62,813 bases of DNA from Gemmatimonadota bacterium (GCA_024641745.1 JAHECL010000002.1:1-62813); one strand, 5' to 3'. Numbered from the stretch's first letter, positions 3,020-15,219 are shown. Notes: a model not told the origin generated them from the letters alone. Translations and numbers: made by a program.

Positions 3020-5290
3020 CTACTGCGCGAGGAAGGCGCCGGCCAGCGGGACGGGGGGAGCCCCTTCGAAGGCGATCGTCGCGGAGAGTGCCGAGCCGCC
3101 GCTTCCCTGCACGAACCGGACGGTCAGCGGATGGATGCCGGCCTCGAGCGCGATCATCCCGGCGCGCTCTGCTTCCGAGTGCCAGCCGTCGTTGTCCACC
3201 ACGACGCGGTCGCCGATCTCGAGCACGCTGCCGTCGTCCGAGGAGAGGGCGATGGTGTAGAGCCCGGACCGCTCCACCCGCAGGTAGCCGGTGAACAGCA
3301 GGCCATAGGTTTCCTGCCGCTGGAATCCCGGCAGGGCGATTGCGTCAGCGGTGGCCACACGCGTCGGTGCTGCCGTCGCCACAGCCCGGGCACCGGGGAA
3401 TTCTCGTTCGTGGTATGCCACGCGCAGCCCCGGCTTCAGCCCTTCGCTCGGCATCCGCGATGCCGGCCGAAGGGTGGTCCGGCGCACCCGCGCCTGGCGG
3501 GGCGGGCTGGAGAGGCCGCCGGGCAGGAAGACCGCCCCGGTGATGACGGTCCCGACCGTATCAACGCGCAGCACCAGCGGCTTGGTGTAGAGGGCCGACT
3601 CGACCGTGGGCACGGTGCCGTCCAGAGTGTATCGAATCTGTCCGTTGGGCAGCGGGCTCCGGAGGGTCACGACGGCGGTGTCCGCCAGCGTGATCCGGTC
3701 CCGCTCGAGCCCGAGCACGCTCGGCGTCCGGTAGCTGACGCCGAGGCGGTCCAGCGCGGCCAGCGCAGACGGCAGCCGGGCGATGAAGCTGTCCCAGTCG
3801 CGGGCCGATGCCGGGCTCCAGGTCACCTCCGCCATCGCGAGCATCCGGGGAAGAACCATCCACTCCACCCGGTCGCTCGTCGTCATGTACTCGGTCCAGA
3901 CGTTGCCCTGCGCGCCGAGGACGTGCCGGGCCTGCGCCGGCGTCAGCTCGGCAGGAACCGGCTCGAAGCCATAGACCTTCTCGAGCGGCACGTTGCCGCC
4001 GATCGAGAAGGGCTCCAGCGTCGGGTCGCCCTGGGCGTAGTCGAAGTAGGCGTGGCTGGTGGGGGTCATCACCACGTCGTGCCCCTGCTGCGCGGCGGCG
4101 ATGCCGCCGCTCACGCCGCGCCAGCTCATCACCGTGGCGTCGGGGGCCAGTCCCCCTTCGAGAATCTCGTCCCAGCCGATGATCCGCCGGCCGTGGGCGT
4201 TCAGGAACCGCTCAATCCGCTGGATGAACCAGCTCTGCAGGGCGTGTTCGTCGGCCAGCTGCTCCTTCTTGATCACCTGCTGCGCCAGGTCGCTCGACTT
4301 CCAGCGCGCCTTGGGCGCCTCGTCCCCGCCGATGTGGATGTAGGGGCCGGGAAAGAGCGCCATCACCTCGGTCAGGACGCCCTCGAGGAAGGTGAAGGTG
4401 GCCTCGCCGGGGCAGAGGATGTCCTCCTCCACGCCCCAGACGGTACCGACCTCGAAGGGGCCTGGGGTGCAGGCCAGTTCGGGGTAGGCGGCGAGGGCCG
4501 CCAGGGAGTGGCCCGGCATCTCGATCTCGGGGATGATCGTGATGTGCCGCGCAGCGGCGTAGGCCACCACTTTCCGGATCTCGGCCTGGGTGTAGAAGCC
4601 GCAGTAGGGAATCCCGTCGCCGACGTAGGGATCGAAGTGCTTCTCGAGGATCGTTTCCCGGCGGCAGGAGCCGACGGTGGTGAGCCTCGGATAGCGCTGG
4701 ATCTCGATCCGCCATCCCTGGTCGTCGGTCAGGTGCCAGTGGAAGGTGTTGAACTTGTAGCGGGCCAGGAGGTCGATGTAGCGCTCGACGAACGCGACCG
4801 GGAAGAAGTGGCGGCTGACGTCGAGATGCATGCCGCGGTAGGGGAAGCGGGGTGAATCCTCGATCCGCACCCGCGGTACGGTTCCGATGAACGCGGCATG
4901 CAGCAATTGTCGAAAGGTCTGCAGCCCGTGGAAGAGCCCCGCCTCGGTGGGGGAGGAGATGGTCACGCCGCCGTCAGCCGCGTCCAGGCGGTAGCCCTCG
5001 GCGCCGAGGGCGGAATCGGGTGGGGTGAGCCGAAGGGTGAGGCCGGGGAGGCTCTTCTCGGTCAGCGAGTCGAGGCGGCGTCCAATCTCCGCGGCCACCA
5101 GGGCATCGGCGTAGTCGGCGAGCCCGTCGAGATCCGCCGACGCGGCGCCCTCGATCCGCACGGAAGCCTTGAGCTGGATGTATCCGGTGTCGCGGATGAC
5201 GATTCGGGGATACGGGATGAGCGGGAGAGGGGCCTGGGCACCGGCGTCTGTGGCGAGCGCAACAATCAGGAACGTGAGCAATCGTGTCAC
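3020..5290 (-). CDS. Secreted GH20 beta-N-acetylhexosaminidase with C-terminal PA14 domain
   Basis: The GH20 core motifs are RGMHLDVSRHF, FHWHLTDDQGWR and HIGGDEAP. The C-terminal ~130 aa are PA14-like (GLLFTGYLRVERSGLYTIALSSDDGSVLEIGDRVVVDNDG). The start was trimmed to the GTG at 5288-5290 (VTRLLTFLIVALATDAGAQA signal peptide), which overlaps the kinase stop codon. The track ORF 3020..5695 is over-extended. Confidence 0.9.
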   Translation of the reverse strand: MTRLLTFLIVALATDAGAQAPLPLIPYPRIVIRDTGYIQLKASVRIEGAASADLDGLADYADALVAAEIGRRLDSLTEKSLPGLTLRLTPPDSALGAEGYRLDAADGGVTISSPTEAGLFHGLQTFRQLLHAAFIGTVPRVRIEDSPRFPYRGMHLDVSRHFFPVAFVERYIDLLARYKFNTFHWHLTDDQGWRIEIQRYPRLTTVGSCRRETILEKHFDPYVGDGIPYCGFYTQAEIRKVVAYAAARHITIIPEIEMPGHSLAALAAYPELACTPGPFEVGTVWGVEEDILCPGEATFTFLEGVLTEVMALFPGPYIHIGGDEAPKARWKSSDLAQQVIKKEQLADEHALQSWFIQRIERFLNAHGRRIIGWDEILEGGLAPDATVMSWRGVSGGIAAAQQGHDVVMTPTSHAYFDYAQGDPTLEPFSIGGNVPLEKVYGFEPVPAELTPAQARHVLGAQGNVWTEYMTTSDRVEWMVLPRMLAMAEVTWSPASARDWDSFIARLPSALAALDRLGVSYRTPSVLGLERDRITLADTAVVTLRSPLPNGQIRYTLDGTVPTVESALYTKPLVLRVDTVGTVITGAVFLPGGLSSPPRQARVRRTTLRPASRMPSEGLKPGLRVAYHEREFPGARAVATAAPTRVATADAIALPGFQRQETYGLLFTGYLRVERSGLYTIALSSDDGSVLEIGDRVVVDNDGWHSEAERAGMIALEAGIHPLTVRFVQGSGGSALSATIAFEGAPPVPLAGAFLAQ

Positions 5291-8001
5291 CGCTCCTCCA
5301 CCTCCGCCACCCAGATGTCCGCCTGGTGTTCGCCGGCGACGAAGTAGAACCGGCTGCCGTCGGTGTCGAAGTTCCCGCGGGTGACCCAGGTGTCCGCGGG
5401 GTCGAAGGCGACGATCTTCCGCAGCGTTCCCCGCGCGGTGTCGATGGACCAGTAGGCGGGTACCCCCAGTGAGTCCAGCGAAAAACTGTAGAGCCCCTGA
5501 CCGCCGAGGCCGCTCTGGGCCCAGGTCGTGCTGAACCAGTGGGGGGCCTGGAAGAGTACCTCCGGGGTGGCGCGTCGCCCCGCAGGCACGGCGAGCAGGC
5601 GAGGCAGGCTGTCCCTGGTCCAGATCAGGTAGGCGGTTCGGTCGGCGGTCATGAAGTTGACGAGCCCCCGCCCGACCCGTGTCGGCGGGCCCCATGGCAT
5701 TGATCGAGCATTGCGCCGGATCTCCACGAACTCGAGGGCGGGCACCTCTCCGCGGGAATACACGAGCGTGTTGTCGTCCGGGCCCCAGGCGGCGTACCAG
5801 TCGCTCAGGGTGTCGGTGGTGACCTGCGCGAGGCCGGTGCCGTCGGCGTGGATGGTGAAGACGTCGCGGTTGCCGGTGCGGAACGAGTGGAAGGCAATCT
5901 CCGAACCGTCGGGCGACCAGTTGGCGCTCAGGTCGTCGGCGGGGTCGTCGGTCAGCTGCCGAGGCGTACCGCCGTCAGAGGGGACGATGAAGAGGTCGCC
6001 GTTGCCATTGAGGTCGGAGTCATAGAGCAGCCACTTGCCGTCGGGAGAGAGCCGCAGGATCTCGCTCGCCTGGTTCCCCCGGGTGATCGCCACCCCCGAG
6101 CGCGCGTTCACGCTTCCCGTAGGCGAGAGCCGCACCATCCAGATGTTGAGATCCCGGGTGTACTTCGAGTAGGCCAGTCGCGAGCCGTCCTTCGACAGGG
6201 CGAAGGTATGGGCGTCGAGCCCCGTCGTGACCCGCCTCGGCACGCCGTCCGCACGTCCTCCGCGCCGGATTCGTTGAAGGTAGACGTCACGACCCCCGCC
6301 GCGGCTTGAGAGATAGAGCAGAGCGCTGCCGTCGGGGAGCCACGCCGGGGAGAGGTTGAGGGAGGTCGAATCGCTCACCATGACGGGGGTGCCGCCGGTG
6401 GCGGGCATCACGAAGACAGTGCTCGCGGCGAGGTTGCCGAAGGCATCCGCGCTATAGGCGAAACTGGAGTTCCCCCGGACGCCCGCCAGCCACTGACCGT
6501 CCGGGGACCAGGCCAGGGAGTGGACGTCGCGGACCCGGGCGAGGAGCACCGGTTCGCCCCCGTCCGCCGCCATGACCATCACGCTGTCGCCCTTCTCGAA
6601 GGCGATCCGCGAACCGTCGGGCGACCACTTCGGGGCATCCGGCACGCTCCCGTCGTAGGAGAAACCTCGAACCCGGCGAACATCTCCTCCGGTCGGCGGC
6701 ATCGTGACGATGCTCGCCCCGCTGGAATCGTAGGAGACGAACACCAGCCGCCGTCCATCGGGAGACCAGTCCGGCGAGATCTGGCCGCCGCGCATGCCTT
6801 CCGTGATGTTGATCGCCCGCCCCCCATCGACGGGCTGGAGGAAGATCTTGGCCGGTTCGCGAGGCCGGGCGCCGGTATAGGCCAGGAACTGCCCGTCGGG
6901 CGAGATGGCGGGCAGGACCTCCAGCCCCTGCGCGCTGGTGAGGCGGGTCGTGGTGGTGAGCGCCACCTCGGGCCCGCCGCCGGTGCGCCGCGCCAGCAGC
7001 AGCCCCAGGCTTCCCACCACGACGACCAGCGCCGCCACTCCCATTGCCCACTTGCGACTCGAGGGCACCAGGGGGGCCACACCCGTCACCGGCTGGGTGT
7101 AGGTCGGCGTCATTCCGCCGCTCGGCGTGGCCAGCGGTTCCAGCGCCGTCACCAGTTCCTCGGCGCTCTGGAACCGGTCGGCCGGGCGCTTGGCGAGGCA
7201 CTTCATCACGATCGCCTCGAACGCCGGCGAGATCCCCGGCCGGAGCCGCGAGACCGGCTCCGGCGTCTGCATCACGTGGGCGGCGAGGGTCTCCTGCGGC
7301 GTGCGCCCGCTGAACGGCGTCCGGCCGGTGAGGAGTTCGTAGGCCAGGACGCCGAGGGCGTAGATGTCCACCCGGTGGTCGAGATGCGGATCGGCGGCGG
7401 CCTGCTCCGGCGCCATGTAGGCCGGGGTGCCGAGCGCCACGCCGGCGGTGGTGAGCTGCTGGCGGCCGGTGGCCTCGCTCACCGCCTTGGCCACGCCGAA
7501 GTCGCTCACCAGCGCGTGCCGTCCCGACAGCAGGATGTTTTCCGGCTTGATGTCGCGGTGGGCCACGCCGTTCGTGTGCGCGTGGGCCAGGGCGTCGGCC
7601 ACCTCGACGAGGATCCGGATCGCGTCGTGCACCGGCAGTTCGCCGGTCCGGGCCAGCCGGTCGCGGAGCGTCTCGCCGTCCACGAACGGCATGGCGTACC
7701 AGAGGAACTCAGCCGAGCTGTCGTCCGCGGCTGAAGCCGTGGCTCGGCCTGAGGCGCCGCTGTCGAACAGAGGAAGGATGTGGGGGTGCTGGAGCTGGGC
7801 GGCGACCTCGATCTCCCGGAAGAACCGGTCGGGGCCGAGCGACGCGGCAAGTTCCGGTCGCAGGACCTTGACCGCCACCTTCCGGTGGTGCTTGAGGTCC
7901 TCCGCCAGGTACACGGTAGCCATCCCGCCCTGGCCCAGCTCACGCTCGAGGCGGTAGTTGTCGGCCAGCGCGGCGGCGACCCGGTCGAAGGGAGTGGTCA
8001 T
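5287..8001 (-). CDS. Ser/Thr protein kinase with one TM helix and an extracytoplasmic TolB/PD40-type beta-propeller
   Basis: 904 aa. The Hanks kinase motifs are GQGGMATVY, VAVKVL, HRDIKPENILL, DFG and APE. The TM segment is AMGVAALVVVVGSLGLLLA. The C-terminal half carries repeated SPDG/WSPDG PD40 motifs. Confidence 0.9.
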   Translation of the reverse strand: MTTPFDRVAAALADNYRLERELGQGGMATVYLAEDLKHHRKVAVKVLRPELAASLGPDRFFREIEVAAQLQHPHILPLFDSGASGRATASAADDSSAEFLWYAMPFVDGETLRDRLARTGELPVHDAIRILVEVADALAHAHTNGVAHRDIKPENILLSGRHALVSDFGVAKAVSEATGRQQLTTAGVALGTPAYMAPEQAAADPHLDHRVDIYALGVLAYELLTGRTPFSGRTPQETLAAHVMQTPEPVSRLRPGISPAFEAIVMKCLAKRPADRFQSAEELVTALEPLATPSGGMTPTYTQPVTGVAPLVPSSRKWAMGVAALVVVVGSLGLLLARRTGGGPEVALTTTTRLTSAQGLEVLPAISPDGQFLAYTGARPREPAKIFLQPVDGGRAINITEGMRGGQISPDWSPDGRRLVFVSYDSSGASIVTMPPTGGDVRRVRGFSYDGSVPDAPKWSPDGSRIAFEKGDSVMVMAADGGEPVLLARVRDVHSLAWSPDGQWLAGVRGNSSFAYSADAFGNLAASTVFVMPATGGTPVMVSDSTSLNLSPAWLPDGSALLYLSSRGGGRDVYLQRIRRGGRADGVPRRVTTGLDAHTFALSKDGSRLAYSKYTRDLNIWMVRLSPTGSVNARSGVAITRGNQASEILRLSPDGKWLLYDSDLNGNGDLFIVPSDGGTPRQLTDDPADDLSANWSPDGSEIAFHSFRTGNRDVFTIHADGTGLAQVTTDTLSDWYAAWGPDDNTLVYSRGEVPALEFVEIRRNARSMPWGPPTRVGRGLVNFMTADRTAYLIWTRDSLPRLLAVPAGRRATPEVLFQAPHWFSTTWAQSGLGGQGLYSFSLDSLGVPAYWSIDTARGTLRKIVAFDPADTWVTRGNFDTDGSRFYFVAGEHQADIWVAEVEER

Positions 8002-9969: not shown

Positions 9970-10814
9970 GAGGCGTCCTTGAATCGGAGATGCCGGAGGT
10001 ACCGGTAGCTGGCGGCCGCGGAGGCAAGAGGGTCCGCCGGCTCGTCATGCTCCACGAAGAGGTGCTTGACGCCCGCCTCTGCTCGCCGGGCAAAGATGGC
10101 CGCCCAGTCCACACGGCCGGCACCCACGTCCACCATGGCGCCGTCGGCCGCGCGCCCCTTCACGTGCAGCAGCGGGAACCGGCCGGGCCACCGTGCGAAA
10201 TAGGCCAGGGGGCTGCCGCCCCCCTCCAGCACCCAGTAGATGTCCATCTCGAAGCCGACCGTGTCGGGATCGGTATTCGCGAGGAGAAGGTCGTAGGGCA
10301 CCTGGCCGTCGATCGGGCTCAGTTCCGCGGCGTGGTTGTGGTAGGCGAATCGGAACCCCGCGTCCCGCGCCTTCCGACCGCAGGCGTTGAAGCGCTCGGC
10401 CCAGTGATGGTAGTCGTCGAGCGTCCTCCGCTGGTCGGCGTCGATCCAGGCGAGGACGAGATACTCCGCCCCGAGCGCCCGTGCCGCCGTCACGGTGGCA
10501 TCCCAACCCGCCTCGAAGTCGGTGACTTCGAGGTGGGCCGCAGGGGCGCGCAGCCCGAGGTCGTGAAGGAGCTGCCGCGTGCCGGCCGGCGAGCCGCCCC
10601 GATTCCAGGCGAACTCGACGTCCTGGTAGCCGATGGCGGCCAGTCGCTGGAGCGTCCCCGCAAAGTCAGCCTCGAGGGCGTTCCGCACGGTATAGAGCTG
10701 GATGCCGATCCGTCCGAGCCTGTCTGGATGCACGGGGACCAGGCTTCCGGGAAGGGCGGCCCCCAGCGCGGCAGCGGTGGCGCCTTCGACGAACGACCGG
10801 CGGGAGAGGCTCAC
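9966..10814 (-). CDS. Xylose-isomerase-like TIM-barrel protein (sugar phosphate isomerase/epimerase) with Tat signal
   Basis: This is the C-terminal 282 aa of the chimeric track ORF 9966..12122. The GTG at 10812-10814 opens VSLSRRSFVEGATAAALGAAL, a Tat leader, followed by the ...AYHNHAAEL...FEMDIYW motifs. The start overlaps the upstream stop (GTGA). Confidence 0.85.
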   Translation of the reverse strand: MSLSRRSFVEGATAAALGAALPGSLVPVHPDRLGRIGIQLYTVRNALEADFAGTLQRLAAIGYQDVEFAWNRGGSPAGTRQLLHDLGLRAPAAHLEVTDFEAGWDATVTAARALGAEYLVLAWIDADQRRTLDDYHHWAERFNACGRKARDAGFRFAYHNHAAELSPIDGQVPYDLLLANTDPDTVGFEMDIYWVLEGGGSPLAYFARWPGRFPLLHVKGRAADGAMVDVGAGRVDWAAIFARRAEAGVKHLFVEHDEPADPLASAAASYRYLRHLRFKDAS

Positions 10815-11116
10815 GCCTTCCCCTGCATCTTGGCCATCCACCACCGCAGCCCGACGAAGAGGAACCGCCAGTCCTTGAAGAACTCGGGGGGCTTGCCCTC
10901 GAAGGCGTGCCCGACGAACTGGAAGACCCACCCTACGACGAACAGGGTCAGCGGGACCCGCCAGAACCCGGGCACCCAGATGCCGATCAGGAAGAGGGGA
11001 AGCGAGAGGGCGATGAGCGGGATGCCGATGGTGTGGCACACCCGGTTGACCGTATGCTGGTGGCTGGTGGCGTACTGCGAGATCCACTCGTCCCAGCTCC
11101 TGCCGCCGAGCGCCAT
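10811..11116 (-). CDS. DUF962/Mpo1-like small membrane protein
   Basis: From the ATG at 11116: MALGGRSWDEWISQYATSHQHTVNRVCHTIGIPLIALSLPLF... This matches the typical YxxxHxxxxNxxxHxxGIP signature, with 2-3 TM helices. The alternative TTG at 11176 would run into the terminator at 11188-11217. Confidence 0.7.
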   Translation of the reverse strand: MALGGRSWDEWISQYATSHQHTVNRVCHTIGIPLIALSLPLFLIGIWVPGFWRVPLTLFVVGWVFQFVGHAFEGKPPEFFKDWRFLFVGLRWWMAKMQGKA

Positions 11117-11187
11117 GCGAGCCTCGCCATTCGGGAGAATACCCCGAAGTGTTCCACCGAAACGGGTGGGGGGCAAGTGGGGGGCGG

Positions 11188-11217
11188 AAAAAACCCGCCC
11201 GGCGACGGCCGGGCGGG
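11188..11217 (-). terminator. Rho-independent terminator downstream of the lysine 2,3-aminomutase gene
   Basis: Read on the minus strand: CCCGCCCGGC-cgtc-GCCGGGCGGG (10-bp perfect stem, 4-nt loop) followed directly by TTTTTT. It lies 38 nt after the stop at 11255. Confidence 0.7.
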
Positions 11218-11254
11218 GGTCTTCCAGTGATGCACCAGGATCGGTGCCCGGCGC

Positions 11255-12442
11255 TCAGGCCAGTTTCCGCTTCGCTGTCTTGGTGCCTGTCTTGCTGGTT
11301 CGCTTCGCTGGCTTCTTCAGCTGCAGCGTCGGCTGGAAGAGATACTCGGGATCGGTGCGCCGGCCCATGGCCACCATCGCCTCCTCCTCGTTGGGCTGGC
11401 GGTAGACGAACCGGTCGCCGCGGAAATTGCGCAGGACGACCTCCTCGTCGCTCATCGACTCGACATACTCCGGGAGGAGCGGGATCTTGCCGCCGCCGCC
11501 GGGCGCGTCGATGACGAAATGCGGGTTGGCCAGGCCGCTGGTCCAGCCGCGCAGCGCTTCCATGATCTGCAGGCCGGTCTGGACGCTGGTCCGGAAGTGC
11601 TCGGCGCCCGCCACCTGGTCGGCCATGTAGATGTAGTACGGCCGGACCCGTGCGATCATCAGCTTGTGCATCAGCTGCTTCATGACCTCGGGGCTGTCGT
11701 TGACGCCGCGGAGGAGCACGGTCTGGCACCCGAGCGGGATGCCGGCATCGGCCAGCATGCCGAGGCCCTTGATGGCGGCCGGCGTCAGCTCGTCGGGGTG
11801 GTTGAAATGCGTGTTGATCCACACCGGATGGTACTTCTTGATCGTGGCGCAGAGTTCCGGCGTGATCCGCTCCGGGAGGTGACAGGGGACGCGGCTCCCG
11901 ATCCGGATGATCTCGATGTGCTTGATGCTCCGGAGCCGGGACAGGATGGCGTCCAGCCGGCGGTCGTTCAGGAGCAGCGGGTCGCCACCCGACATGATGA
12001 CGTCGCGGATCTCGGTGTGGCTCTCCAGGTACTGGAAGGCCGACTCGAACTGCGACATCGGGATCTTCTCGGGGTCGCCCACCTTGCGCCGCCTGGTGCA
12101 GAACCGGCAGTAGCTGGCGCACACCGGGCTGACCAGGAAGAGCGCCCGGTCGGGATAGCGGTGCGTGATGTTCGGCACCGGGCTGTCCTCGTCCTCGTTC
12201 AGGGAGTCCACGATGCCGTCGTGGACCTCCAGTTCCTGGACGGAGGGGATGTACTGACGCCAGATCGGGTCGTCGGGGGACTTGATCAGGTCCACCATCG
12301 CCGGCGAGATCCGGAACTCGAAATTCTCCGCCGCCAGCCGGAGCCGGTCGAGTTCGGGGAAGTTCTCGGCCCCGAACCGGCTGGCCAGCGTGTCGAGCGA
12401 CGCGATCGAGTTCTTACGCAGGACTTCCTGCCAAGTCTCCAT
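11255..12442 (-). CDS. kamA: Lysine 2,3-aminomutase (radical SAM/PLP, KamA family)
   Basis: 395 aa. It carries the CASYCRFC radical-SAM CX3CX2C cluster motif and the HRYPDR, SGGDPL and APGGGGK (PLP lysine) motifs. It also has YYIYMAD and VIDAPGGGGK, which keep the two Asp residues that I recall binding the lysine epsilon-amine in Clostridium KamA. An SD (GAGGGTGAGG) precedes the ATG. Confidence 0.9.
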   Translation of the reverse strand: METWQEVLRKNSIASLDTLASRFGAENFPELDRLRLAAENFEFRISPAMVDLIKSPDDPIWRQYIPSVQELEVHDGIVDSLNEDEDSPVPNITHRYPDRALFLVSPVCASYCRFCTRRRKVGDPEKIPMSQFESAFQYLESHTEIRDVIMSGGDPLLLNDRRLDAILSRLRSIKHIEIIRIGSRVPCHLPERITPELCATIKKYHPVWINTHFNHPDELTPAAIKGLGMLADAGIPLGCQTVLLRGVNDSPEVMKQLMHKLMIARVRPYYIYMADQVAGAEHFRTSVQTGLQIMEALRGWTSGLANPHFVIDAPGGGGKIPLLPEYVESMSDEEVVLRNFRGDRFVYRQPNEEEAMVAMGRRTDPEYLFQPTLQLKKPAKRTSKTGTKTAKRKLA

Positions 12443-12457
12443 GCCAGAACCTCACCC

Positions 12458-12958
12458 TCAGTGTGTTGCGGGGGCCTCGAAATACTTCACGAACGTCACC
12501 TGGTCATCGCCCGGGGCGTAGAAGTCCGGGATCAAGCCCACGGCCCGATATCCCCGGGCCTCGTAGAAGGCGCGCGTCGGCGCGTAGTCCGCACGACCCG
12601 CCGTCTCCACGACCACCAGCCGTGCCACCCCGGCGAGCCGGCGCTCCATCTCGTCCACCAGCAGCGTGCCGAGTCCATGCCCGTGCAGCGCCGGATCGAC
12701 CGCCATCCAGTAGAGGTCCCAGGTGGCGAGGGTGCAGGGCGTCGGTCCCCAGCAGATCCACCCCGCCAGCCGGCCGTCCACCTCGACGCCCAGCGCCGTG
12801 TAGTCGGGACTGCCGGCGACCGCGGCGTCGAAGACCTCAAGCGCGACCGGCACCTCGTCGTCCCGAAAGAGCCCCACCGCCCTGGTGATCTCCTCCAGCC
12901 GACCGCGGTCGGCGGCGGTCATGCCCCGAAGCTGCCCCGCCGCCACCGCGCGGGTCAC
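12458..12958 (-). CDS. GNAT family N-acetyltransferase
   Basis: The acetyl-CoA motif region is LYWMAVDPALHGHGLGTLLVDEMERRL, and the C-terminus reads ...RAFYEARGYR. The chosen start is the GTG at 12956-12958, overlapping the upstream stop (GTGA). An alternative ATG lies at 12922. The track ORF start at 13057 was rejected. Confidence 0.8.
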   Translation of the reverse strand: MTRAVAAGQLRGMTAADRGRLEEITRAVGLFRDDEVPVALEVFDAAVAGSPDYTALGVEVDGRLAGWICWGPTPCTLATWDLYWMAVDPALHGHGLGTLLVDEMERRLAGVARLVVVETAGRADYAPTRAFYEARGYRAVGLIPDFYAPGDDQVTFVKYFEAPATH

Positions 12959-13962
12959 GAGGTGACCCGGCCCGCCAGCGCACCGTCCGCCAGCGCAATC
13001 CGTCCCCGCTCCAGCGCTTCCTCCGCGATCTGCAGCACCAGCGCCGGGTAATCCCATCCGTGCGCCCGGCCCATCCGCGCCAGTCCCGCGTCACTCGACA
13101 GGTCGGGATCGGGATTCAGTTCGAGCACCCACGGGGTGCCGTCGGCATCGAGGCGGATGTCGACTCGCCCATATCCCTCGCACTTTGCCAGGGCGCGCCA
13201 CGCGCGTTCTGCAACGGTGACCAGTTTTTTCGCCGTTGCCTGGTCGACCCTGGCCGGACAGACCGGAATGGTGTGCAGGTCGTAGTCGCTGCCTGCATTC
13301 CACTTGGCGGCATAGGTCACGATCGGCGGCTTGCCCTCGCCGAGTCCGGTGAAATCGATCTCCGAAATCGGCAGCGCCGTCGTCCCGACGAAGCCGACAT
13401 TGAACTCGCGGCCCTCCACATACTCCTGGACCAGCACGTCTTCCCAGGTCGCCGTCACCTTGGCGAGCCGCTCAAGGAGCGCCGCCGGCGTGTGGCAGAC
13501 GGACCCCTCGTCGATGCCGACGCTGGCGTCCTCCATCGACGGCTTCACGATGACCGGAAACCGGACCCCGTCCGGCACCACCGGTTCGTGTACCAGGGCG
13601 AAGGCCGGGACCGGCACGCCCGCTTCCCGGAGCAGCGTGTTTGCCACATGCTTCCGGTGGCAGATCGTGATCGGCCAGGAGCGGCACCCGGTGAACGGCA
13701 CCCGGACCAGCTCCAGCGCGGCCACCACGTAGTCCTCGAACCGGGCGTGGCCGTTGATGCCTTCGCACAGGTTGAAGATCAGGTCGGCCTTCTGACAGCG
13801 TTCGACCCACGCGAGGTCGGCGAGGTACACCGGCACCAGTTCGGTGGTGTGTCCGGCGGCCTGGAGGATCGCCGCGATTTCCCGGACGTTGGACAGGACC
13901 GCCGCCACGTCGGCCGCGGTCCACTCGTCGCTCCCCCCGTCGTGGAGGAGGGCGACCTTCAA
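12955..13962 (-). CDS. D-Ala-D-Ala ligase-like ATP-grasp enzyme (paralog 2)
   Basis: 335 aa. The motifs DLIFNLCEGINGH, FPVIVKPSMEDASVGI, VLVQEYVEGREF and GRVDIRLDADGTPWVLELNPDPDLS fit a Ddl-type ATP-grasp fold. The TTG start overlaps the upstream stop (TTGA at 13959-13962), and GAGGTGG lies 5 nt upstream. Confidence 0.85.
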   Translation of the reverse strand: MKVALLHDGGSDEWTAADVAAVLSNVREIAAILQAAGHTTELVPVYLADLAWVERCQKADLIFNLCEGINGHARFEDYVVAALELVRVPFTGCRSWPITICHRKHVANTLLREAGVPVPAFALVHEPVVPDGVRFPVIVKPSMEDASVGIDEGSVCHTPAALLERLAKVTATWEDVLVQEYVEGREFNVGFVGTTALPISEIDFTGLGEGKPPIVTYAAKWNAGSDYDLHTIPVCPARVDQATAKKLVTVAERAWRALAKCEGYGRVDIRLDADGTPWVLELNPDPDLSSDAGLARMGRAHGWDYPALVLQIAEEALERGRIALADGALAGRVTS

Positions 13963-15062
13963 GCCGCCACCTCAGCCAGGAGCCGTCGGCCGGTGATCCG
14001 CCGCCAGGCAATGTCGGCCACCGTCTGGATCAACTCGTCGTAGTCCATCCCGGCGGAGCGCGCCGCCTTGGGAAAGCAGGAGTTGTCGCGCGGGTCAGGG
14101 AGGATGCCGGGCAGCGGGTTGAGCTCGACGATCATCGGGTTGCCGTCGGCATCGCAGCGGACGTCGATGCGGCACCAGTCGCGACAGCCGATGGCGTGAT
14201 AGGCCCCGAGGGAGGCCTCACGGATGCGTGCCGCCAGCGCTTCCGGGACCGGCGCCGGGCATTCGTAGATGTCGAGCGGGTTGTCGAGGGTGTCCCAGAG
14301 CCACTTGGCTTCGTAGCCGTAGATCGGCGGGGCGCCCTCGGGGAGGTCGGCGTAGTTCATGGCCACGAGGGGGAGGCAGCGCGCCTCCGGACCGTTGCCG
14401 AGGACCGCGACGGTGAATTCCGCCCCGGGGAGCCACGCCTCGATCAGCACCGGCTGGCGGTAGGTGGCGAGCAGGTGCGTGACCCGGGCCACCAGCGCCG
14501 CGCGGTCATGGCAGAGGTTGTCGACGGTGATGCCCTTGCCCGAACCCTCGCAGGCCGGCTTGACGAAGACCGGGAAGGGGAGGGTGGATGCGTCGGCGTC
14601 GGCCACCGACTCGGCGATGCGGAACGGCGCGGTGGGAACGCCGCGGGCCTGCATGACTTCCTTGGCGCGTCCCTTGTGGAGGGCCAGCCCAAGCGCCAGC
14701 GGGTCGGAGGCGTGACAGGGAATGCCGTAGAACTCGCAGATGGCGGGGACGTGCCCCTCGCGGTTCGGTCCGTACAGCCCTTCGGCGATGTTGAAGACGA
14801 AATCGGGCCGCGACTCGGCGAGCTTCTGCGGGAACGACGCGTCGGCCTCGAGGCGGATCACCTGGCCGAGCGGCTGCAGCGCGCGCTCGACGGCGTCGAT
14901 GGTGCCGGGTTCGTCCCATTCGGCGTAGAGATCGGGCTGGTCGAGATCGGTGCGGAGGGCGCGGAGGGCGGTGTTCCGGTCAACAGGGGAGGCGAAGTCT
15001 CCCCCAGCAATCGCTGCGGCCTGGGGCTTCAGGTTGTAGGCGAGTCCGATCCGAACTCCCAA
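13959..15062 (-). CDS. D-Ala-D-Ala ligase-like ATP-grasp enzyme (paralog 1)
   Basis: About 367 aa. The motifs are PDFVFNIAEGLYGPNREGH, FPVFVKPACEGSGKGI, VLIEAWLPGAEF and CRIDVRCDADGNPMIVELNPLPGI. The start was assigned to the TTG at 15060-15062, preceded by GAGGGGGAG. The track ORF (to 15470) runs into folA and was trimmed. Confidence 0.8.
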   Translation of the reverse strand: MGVRIGLAYNLKPQAAAIAGGDFASPVDRNTALRALRTDLDQPDLYAEWDEPGTIDAVERALQPLGQVIRLEADASFPQKLAESRPDFVFNIAEGLYGPNREGHVPAICEFYGIPCHASDPLALGLALHKGRAKEVMQARGVPTAPFRIAESVADADASTLPFPVFVKPACEGSGKGITVDNLCHDRAALVARVTHLLATYRQPVLIEAWLPGAEFTVAVLGNGPEARCLPLVAMNYADLPEGAPPIYGYEAKWLWDTLDNPLDIYECPAPVPEALAARIREASLGAYHAIGCRDWCRIDVRCDADGNPMIVELNPLPGILPDPRDNSCFPKAARSAGMDYDELIQTVADIAWRRITGRRLLAEVAA

Positions 15063-15219
15063 ACACTCCCCCTCAAAAAGGCTGCCGCCGAATTGCGACC
15101 AGCCGACGCTTGCTGTTGTCGGATACCAAGTTAAGAAAAAGGGGAGCGAAGCACAATAGATTTTTTTGAAATTCGTGAACTTCGTTTGTCGGCAGGAAGA
15201 CGAGAAGACGGGAACCGGG
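15063..15219 (-). promoter_or_regulatory. AT-enriched intergenic region upstream of the ATP-grasp/GNAT/KamA operon (promoter/5' UTR; exact elements not resolved)
   Basis: This 157-bp gap lies between the folA stop (15220) and the TTG at 15062. It is locally much less GC-rich than its surroundings (…aatttcaaaaaaatctattgtgcttcgctcccctttttcttaacttgg… on the minus strand). I could not assign a clean -35/-10 pair. Confidence 0.35.

Follow-up and report, generated by a model that had tools for sequence, protein, structure and literature searches.

A conserved operon of two Ddl-like ATP-grasp ligases, a GNAT acyltransferase and a predicted lysine 2,3-aminomutase: a candidate pathway to a small beta-lysine-containing amide

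Introduction

Several described systems join amide ligation, amine acylation or beta-lysine chemistry in ways that recall the locus reported here. In Ngg, a GNAT domain fused to an ATP-grasp ligase makes an N-acetylated dipeptide solute, and Ngg and AsnO lead to N-acetylglutaminylglutamine amide (NAGGN), while in the synthesis of mycosporine-like amino acids two different ATP-grasp ligases, MysC and MysD, one of them like D-Ala-D-Ala ligase (Ddl), act successively on one small scaffold. For beta-lysine, two published accounts give a KamA gene beside a GNAT gene as the ablAB arrangement (PMC3543383, PMC2821294), and the second also describes EpmB, a KamA-family enzyme acting in protein modification (beta-lysylation of elongation factor P, EF-P), and EpmA, a paralogue of lysyl-tRNA synthetase (LysRS) whose genes cluster with efp. 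Here we describe a four-gene operon in a 62,813-nt stretch of DNA from a Gemmatimonadota bacterium (GCA_024641745.1, JAHECL010000002.1:1-62813), which encodes two Ddl-like ATP-grasp ligases (G1 and G2), a small GNAT (G3) and a KamA-family aminomutase (G4). The whole stretch is called the window below, and all coordinates are counted on it. Judged from sequence and gene order, the operon may be a self-contained, separately regulated cytoplasmic pathway to a small beta-lysine-containing amide, a reading that we hold with about even confidence.

Results

Conservation of the cassette

The four minus-strand genes overlap or adjoin one another in the order G1-G2-G3-G4, and are bounded by a gap of 157 bp on one side and a strong terminator on the other:

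13959..15062, minus strand: G1, TTG start, 367 aa, Ddl-like ATP-grasp ligase
12955..13962, minus strand: G2, TTG start, 335 aa, Ddl-like ATP-grasp ligase; its start overlaps the G1 stop as TTGA
12458..12958, minus strand: G3, GTG start, 166 aa, small GNAT acyltransferase; its start overlaps the G2 stop as GTGA
11255..12442, minus strand: G4, ATG start, 395 aa, KamA-family radical-SAM/PLP aminomutase, predicted lysine 2,3-aminomutase

Related loci were collected in two sets. For Gemmatimonadales, one genome per species was scanned and the best 80 loci by similarity, all from Gemmatimonadota, were retained; a metagenome scan seeded with distant family members gave another 80 loci with GC contents of 31-73%, 46 of which had enough sequence. 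Taxonomy beyond Gemmatimonadota was taken from protein names and from look-ups of individual contigs. G1, G2 and the GNAT gene are contiguous in every Gemmatimonadales locus long enough to show it (73/73). The gene after the GNAT, readable in 69 of these loci, is a conventional KamA in 57, a divergent KamA paralogue in three and no KamA in nine, and the 57 conventional KamAs directly downstream of the GNAT are 76-95% identical. Among the metagenome loci the order G1-G2-GNAT-KamA predominates, and the remainder show G1-G2-KamA (two loci), G1-G2 only (four) or KamA-G1 (one). The preliminary description had made co-conservation of the ligases with KamA and the GNAT its key question, and the answer is positive, the same order being kept in 60/69 Gemmatimonadales and 39/46 metagenome loci. 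The invariant core is G1-G2-GNAT, and the arrangement, which recurs in well over 100 independent loci, is far beyond chance.

The cassette extends well outside its home phylum. The same gene order is seen on a 2.5-Mb contig in L093, where the relatives of G1 carry the name Kryptonia; a NusG paralogue encoded there may be a specialised antiterminator. A Myxococcota locus (L086) reads KamA, then fused G1-G2, then GNAT. Locus L089 reads G1, then KamA, then fused G2-GNAT. A G2-GNAT fusion identical to that of L089 lies on the L088 contig amid archaeal-type neighbours (TFIIB zinc ribbon, Trm1 and a B-block TFIIIC domain), and the cassette is probably present in Archaea too. The names of other family members point to Bdellovibrionales, Polyangiales, Kofleriaceae, 'Deltaproteobacteria' and Bacteroidetes.

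Across the related loci, no further gene is consistently adjacent to the cassette, upstream or downstream, and genes for transporters, carrier or target proteins and hydrolases show no consistent linkage to it; the cassette is self-contained. The gene recG is the upstream same-strand neighbour in 30/68 loci (metagenome loci L100, L103, L107, L109, L112 and others), an adjacency that we read as lineage synteny instead of a functional link.

The encoded enzymes

Pfam calls agree with the domain identities first proposed for the four proteins. G4 carries the Radical_SAM and LAM_C domains and scores 289.4 bits on the KamA-family model TIGR00238, over its 199.2 cut-off. Its best specific model is the equivalog for AblA/lysine 2,3-aminomutase (LAM), TIGR03820, on which it reaches 450.7 bits, still under the 525.4 cut-off, and it also falls below the cut-offs of the other equivalogs (glutamate 2,3-aminomutase, 384.6 against 650; arginine 2,3-aminomutase, 314.4 against 600; EpmB, 228 against 369.3). 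When aligned with Clostridium LAM (PDB 2A5H; 1.3e-110), C125, C129, C132, R134, D293, D330 and K337 are all identical in G4. In 2A5H, CxxxCxxC is the cluster motif, Lys337 binds PLP, Asp293 and Asp330 bind the epsilon-amine and Arg134 binds the carboxylate. Equivalents of D293, D330, K337, R134 and the three Cys are kept in 113/113 readable conventional cassette KamAs. The earlier claim that G4 retains both lysine-specifying Asp residues thus holds against 2A5H, and the two are present in the 113 conventional KamAs and in one divergent paralogue (L033, below) as well. Because these active-site residues are conserved, including the Asp293 and Asp330 equivalents, beta-lysine is the likely product of G4.

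At its C-terminus (11255-11330) G4 has a Lys-rich tail, KKPAKRTSKTGTKTAKRKLA, and it covers the first 60 of the 127 positions of Pfam LAM_C and is therefore without most of the clostridial LAM C-terminal domain. The divergent KamA-family paralogue fills the slot of the conventional enzyme in three Gemmatimonadales species (L017, L033 and L038). In L033 it lies at about 10631-11971, is 446 aa long and about 28% identical, and falls under every NCBIfam cut-off; in this copy, the one inspected of the three, CxxxCxxC, both Asp and the PLP Lys are kept. A lone G1-KamA fusion in L085 (7171-9258), found without G2 or GNAT, has Gln at the Asp293 equivalent, and its substrate is possibly another amino acid; the genes beside it encode a class I/V aminotransferase and a RaSEA-like radical SAM protein.

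Both ligases match Pfam Dala_Dala_lig_C (G1, 2.7e-34; G2, 1.1e-25), and neither matches Dala_Dala_lig_N, the Ddl N-terminal domain, so that the C-terminal domain alone is recognised. They are paralogues with 32% identity. Equivalents of Lys215, Arg255, Asp257, Glu270 and Asn272 (DdlB numbering) are present in both, the Tyr216 equivalent is Trp in both, and the Ser281 equivalent is kept in G1 only, the corresponding G2 loop being NPDPDLSSDAG. The domain and the five catalytic residues place G1 and G2 in the Ddl-like branch of the ATP-grasp superfamily. Their best family matches are Ddl models; the NCBIfam Ddl model, with a cut-off of 243 bits, is nevertheless missed by both (G1, 171.9; G2, 126.2), as is every curated Ddl cut-off, and by these scores they are not true D-Ala-D-Ala ligases.

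G3 matches Pfam Acetyltransf_1 (7.4e-11), and its acetyl-CoA loop, HGHGLG, which is QSQGVG or QGHGVG in orthologues, corresponds to the GNAT motif Q/R-x-x-G-x-G/A, placing it in the superfamily. Just five NCBIfam models reach E <= 0.01 with G3, and AblB, the beta-lysine N6-acetyltransferase family (whose model we take to be TIGR03827), is not among them. Weak family matches are to the amine-acetylating AAC(6') and RimI. The closest solved structure is 2R7H (8e-25), an uncharacterised structural-genomics entry labelled 'Putative D-alanine N-acetyltransferase', which has the motif GPTPxTxxTxDLYWIAV in common with G3.

Gene fusions and variant cassettes

A census of fusions covered the 150 best representatives (50%-identity clusters) found with G1, in a family of roughly 940 such clusters with E < 1e-30. 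About 40 of the 150 are tandem ligase fusions, in both orders (G1-G2 and G2-G1), three are KamA-G1 fusions (P0257, P0290 and P0332), one is a G1-KamA fusion (P0283) and one joins a ligase to a GNAT (G2-GNAT, P0374). A further G2-GNAT fusion is the second gene of L087, where the whole pathway is held in two proteins, KamA-G1 and G2-GNAT. G1 is the hub of these independent fusions, and the pattern, in which KamA is joined to G1, G1 to G2 and G2 to GNAT, suggests a chain of hand-overs. The fused GNAT of L087 does not match G3 and matches other GNAT Pfam models, a hint that it is acylation as such that is selected or required.

Relatives of the ligase pair also occur in two other settings. Type B has neither KamA nor GNAT; its two ligases are fused, and their gene is coupled in translation to one for a Peptidase_S58 (DmpA/BapA beta-aminopeptidase family; 2e-94). 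This form is found in Bdellovibrionales and another lineage, and its two proteins could serve to make and to degrade a peptide with an N-terminal beta- or D-amino acid. In two type B loci (L095 and L096) a trehalose-phosphatase gene follows the unit. Type C comprises genes for a SpeY-like DHS, a SpeB-like agmatinase and a pyruvoyl ArgDC, followed by G1, G2, a methyltransferase and two GT4 glycosyltransferases. The three genes ahead of G1 correspond to the agmatine-dependent homospermidine pathway of PMC13625781. The positions of both types, counted on their own contigs, are:

L091, 7001-10432, and L095-L097, 7001-10227: type B, fused tandem ligase and Peptidase_S58
L126, 3455-11732, and also L117, L138, L144, L160 and L172: type C, six loci of one lineage

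Given the S58, homospermidine and L085 variants, the ligase pair appears to be a module combinable with different basic-amine suppliers, of which beta-lysine is by far the commonest in the sample reached. The earlier proposal that the ligases act on beta-lysine is supported, with one qualification: beta-lysine is the usual partner of the pair, and the Peptidase_S58 and homospermidine variants show that it is not the sole one.

Operon structure and leader

The anatomy of the operon, as set out in the preliminary description, could be reproduced throughout: the four-gene minus-strand unit agrees to the base, the TTGA and GTGA overlaps are present in the sequence, and the terminator and the first Shine-Dalgarno (SD) sequence are where they had been placed. 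The gap of 157 bp between the folA stop and G1 had been called AT-enriched, and has 51% GC compared with 69.7% for the window; the base composition of the operon is that of the host genome. G4 starts 15 nt past the G3 stop and has GGTGAGG as its SD. A longer G1 open reading frame, reaching 15470, was discarded, as the N-termini of homologues favour a start at 15062. The signals around the genes are as follows:

15126..15167, minus strand: promoter-like element, AAAAAATCTATTGTG, a spacer of about 15 nt, TTTTTCTTAACTTGG
15075..15104, minus strand: leader hairpin (15104..15080) and T5 (15079..15075)
15066..15074, minus strand: SD of G1, GAGGGGGAG, 4-12 nt ahead of the G1 TTG
11188..11217, minus strand: intrinsic terminator ending the operon; hairpin 11217..11194 with ten G-C pairs and a 4-nt loop, then T6

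The neighbouring genes are unrelated to the cassette: the upstream side has thyA and folA, both in the orientation of the operon, and the genes downstream encode an Mpo1-like protein and a xylose-isomerase-like TIM-barrel protein. The names of its closest relatives place the organism in the Gemmatimonadales.

The promoter-like element occurs as a single copy in the window. The form shared in Gemmatimonadales consists of AAAAACTATTGTG, a spacer of about 15 nt and TTTCTTACTTTAG, and can be recognised ahead of G1 in 68/76 relatives; a scan for the sigma-70 consensus made no call on the element, and we infer a promoter role for 15167..15126. The hairpin that follows has 9 bp with one bulge (-13.2 kcal/mol) and was partly flagged also by the signal scan. 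A hairpin with a run of T5-8, ending 14-21 nt ahead of the start, is found in 46/68 Gemmatimonadales leaders, where, scored sequence by sequence, the stems differ in sequence yet stay complementary, i.e. they carry compensatory changes. RNAalifold, run on the Gemmatimonadales leaders, misaligned the GC hairpin owing to loop-length differences and reported the CCUU/GAGG pairing alone, in which the G1 SD is paired with the preceding CCUUUU; GTAGAGG or GTAGGAGG is kept at the SD position of G1 in relatives. The leader hairpin is a candidate transcription attenuator, and since it is placed downstream of the promoter-like element and ahead of the SD, read-through should be needed, so that expression in Gemmatimonadales probably depends on terminator read-through. 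No antiterminator was identified in the leader, and Rfam gave no match in the operon region (E <= 5) or in 15 related loci (gathering thresholds).

Outside Gemmatimonadota a different leader is seen, composed of ATGTTGAAC, GAGAGGA, 20-30 nt and ATCTTCC (90 nt upstream of G1), in L104, L112, L128, L132, L134, L136, L103, L130, L169 and others. This motif stands 15-25 nt ahead of a start codon without its own SD; RNAalifold gave no consensus structure for it, and it has no Rfam match.

Discussion

A pathway can be proposed from these observations. From its conserved active-site residues, G4 would turn L-lysine into beta-lysine, which G1, as the KamA-G1 fusions suggest, would join to a second substrate by an ATP-dependent amide bond. 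G2 would make a second amide bond, a step that could fall before or after that of the GNAT, and the GNAT, in keeping with the G2-GNAT fusions, would N-acylate a remaining free amine, probably with an acetyl group. The predicted product is a beta-lysyl dipeptide or tripeptide that bears an N-acetyl group, or some amide akin to it. It is most simply read as a free metabolite of the cytoplasm, since no transporter, carrier, target or hydrolase has a consistent link to the cassette and no efp gene lies nearby.

A role of this product as a compatible solute or in stress would be the weakest part of the proposal, with a probability well under that of the general mechanism, since it is suggested only by the likeness to AblAB and NAGGN and by a small number of neighbouring genes related to ions or osmolytes. 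L087 adjoins genes for a Na+/H+ exchanger and TrkA, and the Bdellovibrionales variant adjoins a trehalose phosphatase gene. Elsewhere, ablA is under terminator-based Na+ and c-di-AMP riboswitches (PMC9337991).

A number of points weigh against the proposed pathway or its role. KamA is not always next to the core, which lacks a following KamA in 9/69 Gemmatimonadales and 4/46 metagenome loci, and close relatives of the ligase pair sit with Peptidase_S58 or homospermidine genes, so that the pair is not tied to beta-lysine alone. The habitats are not especially saline: where a contig title names one, it is sediment or activated sludge, and metagenome-assembled genomes of Gemmatimonadales are the closest relatives. 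Each molecule of such a solute would be costly, taking two ATP, one acetyl-CoA and a radical-SAM step. The GNAT could be a self-protection enzyme instead. Neither an exporter nor an importer was found linked to the cassette, which neither proves nor excludes an intracellular role.

Among other explanations, the ligases might decorate a macromolecule (a protein, peptidoglycan or a surface polysaccharide) with beta-lysine or a beta-lysyl peptide that is then acetylated. ATP-grasp enzymes such as RimK act in protein modification, and together with EpmB they provide precedents. A Wzc-like chain-length/tyrosine-kinase gene and the NusG-paralogue gene directly precede the L093 cassette (3852-6758), and in L126-type loci the ligase genes are followed by one for a methyltransferase and two for GT4 glycosyltransferases. 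Such envelope-gene neighbours are, however, confined to particular lineages, and no conserved target or carrier gene stands beside the cassette. G4 also fits the AblA model (451 bits) much more closely than that of EpmB (228, under the 369 cut-off), and a search with the E. coli EF-P sequence returned no efp-like gene, either in the window or in the 177 loci, which total about 1.9 Mb. We consider decoration of a macromolecule unlikely.

It is quite unlikely, in our estimate, that G1 and G2 acylate amines of the di- or polyamine type in general, with beta-lysine (3,6-diaminohexanoate) just one that is supplied and a polyamine-like conjugate as the product. The six type C loci, in which homospermidine-pathway genes precede G1 and G2, and the GNAT's weak matches to the amine-acetylating AAC(6') and RimI speak for such conjugates, but the six belong to one lineage (ArgDC 87-95% identical) and so reflect one evolutionary event, and their adjacency may be operon packing and not shared chemistry. 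This explanation also overlaps the beta-lysine amide pathway instead of excluding it.

A polymerase is a third possibility. Cyanophycin synthetase is a two-activity polymerase, which the paired or fused ligase domains recall, and the coupled Peptidase_S58 variant resembles a pair of synthetase and hydrolase; the two ligases might likewise make a beta-lysine polyamide for storage or as a polycation, with the GNAT capping or priming the chain. Against this, neither the window nor the type A loci (those with KamA and GNAT) contain a hydrolase, and the enzymes are small and Ddl-sized, without extra primer-binding domains, with nothing that shows processive synthesis. Polymer formation is distinctly unlikely on this evidence.

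The adjacency of KamA and GNAT, being the ablAB arrangement, could also mean a plain AblA/AblB pair for N-epsilon-acetyl-beta-lysine that lies beside two unrelated Ddl paralogues by chance. This is highly improbable, as G3 has no AblB match and G4 is under the AblA equivalog cut-off, in other organisms fusion proteins join the ligases to KamA and to a GNAT, and the invariant partners of the GNAT are the ligases, not KamA. Scarcely credible is a housekeeping or catabolic origin, with true cell-wall D-Ala-D-Ala ligases beside a KamA for lysine fermentation, for although the top family matches of G1 and G2 are Ddl models and clostridial KamA starts lysine fermentation, the Ddl scores are 172 and 126 against 243, the Ddl N-terminal Pfam domain goes undetected, none of the eight flanking genes scanned belongs to a lysine-fermentation family by Pfam, and no neighbour is consistent across related loci.

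Returning to the beta-lysine amide pathway, we tentatively propose, with somewhat less than even confidence, that the cassette marks out a widespread class of metabolites that has gone unrecognised until now: small amides, cationic or zwitterionic, built on beta-lysine (on polyamine in sister cassettes) by a dedicated ligase pair and an N-acyltransferase, across Bacteria and probably Archaea, and under lineage-specific leader elements outside Rfam. If so, these compounds might, for instance, form a new family of compatible solutes, or of protectants against desiccation, in bacteria of soils and sediments. A cassette of about 4 kb that keeps the same order across 31-73% GC, with two dedicated amide ligases added to beta-lysine chemistry, implies a common microbial metabolite, or modification, that has not been described before. 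Function would be assigned to a large group of proteins now annotated 'D-alanine--D-alanine ligase', and a new leader-based regulatory element may emerge. The system is tractable: all enzymes are encoded on one small operon, the structure of a GNAT orthologue (2R7H) exists, and cultured relatives probably exist.

Comparison with known systems

The preliminary description had matched the locus to no characterised pathway, and we likewise found no description of the cassette in the searchable full-text literature, NCBIfam or Rfam; no NCBIfam family passes for G1-G3. The nearest system is AblA/AblB of methanogens and some bacteria, which shares a LAM/AblA-type aminomutase beside a GNAT in one operon, beta-lysine as the likely intermediate, and regulation, of ablA elsewhere, through leader terminators. 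The cassette differs in that G3 is not of the AblB family, G4 is under the AblA cut-off, and two ATP-grasp ligases, often fused, are obligatory partners, so that its product, compared with that of AblAB, must carry one or two extra amide bonds. EpmA/EpmB follows a similar logic, in which a KamA-family enzyme supplies beta-lysine and a dedicated ligase attaches it by an amide bond, whereas the cassette has no efp linkage and G4 is under the EpmB cut-off.

Ngg/AsnO, likened here by description, is comparable in architecture to the G2-GNAT fusions, but the cassette has a ligase of the Ddl-like ATP-grasp lineage, a second ligase, an aminomutase and other substrates, and there is no amidotransferase in the operon. 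D-Ala-D-Ala ligase and the stand-alone enzymes BacD/YwfE, TabS, RizA and BL00235 share the fold and the catalytic Lys/Arg/Asp/Glu/Asn with G1 and G2, and G2 weakly matches the BL00235 ligase (PDB 3VOT). Unlike these Ddl and L-amino-acid ligases, the cassette enzymes form a dedicated pair with KamA and the GNAT, match any Ddl at no more than about 100 bits, and have a divergent N-terminal substrate domain and Trp in place of Tyr216. MysC/MysD offers a parallel for the two-ligase logic, whereas the cassette is without the genes for a sugar-derived core (EEVS/DDGS, O-methyltransferase) and its scaffold is an amino acid. Taken on sequence, the known kind to which the cassette belongs is ATP-grasp amide synthesis, and what would be new is a beta-lysine-based small-amide pathway via ATP-grasp ligases that is common in environmental bacteria.

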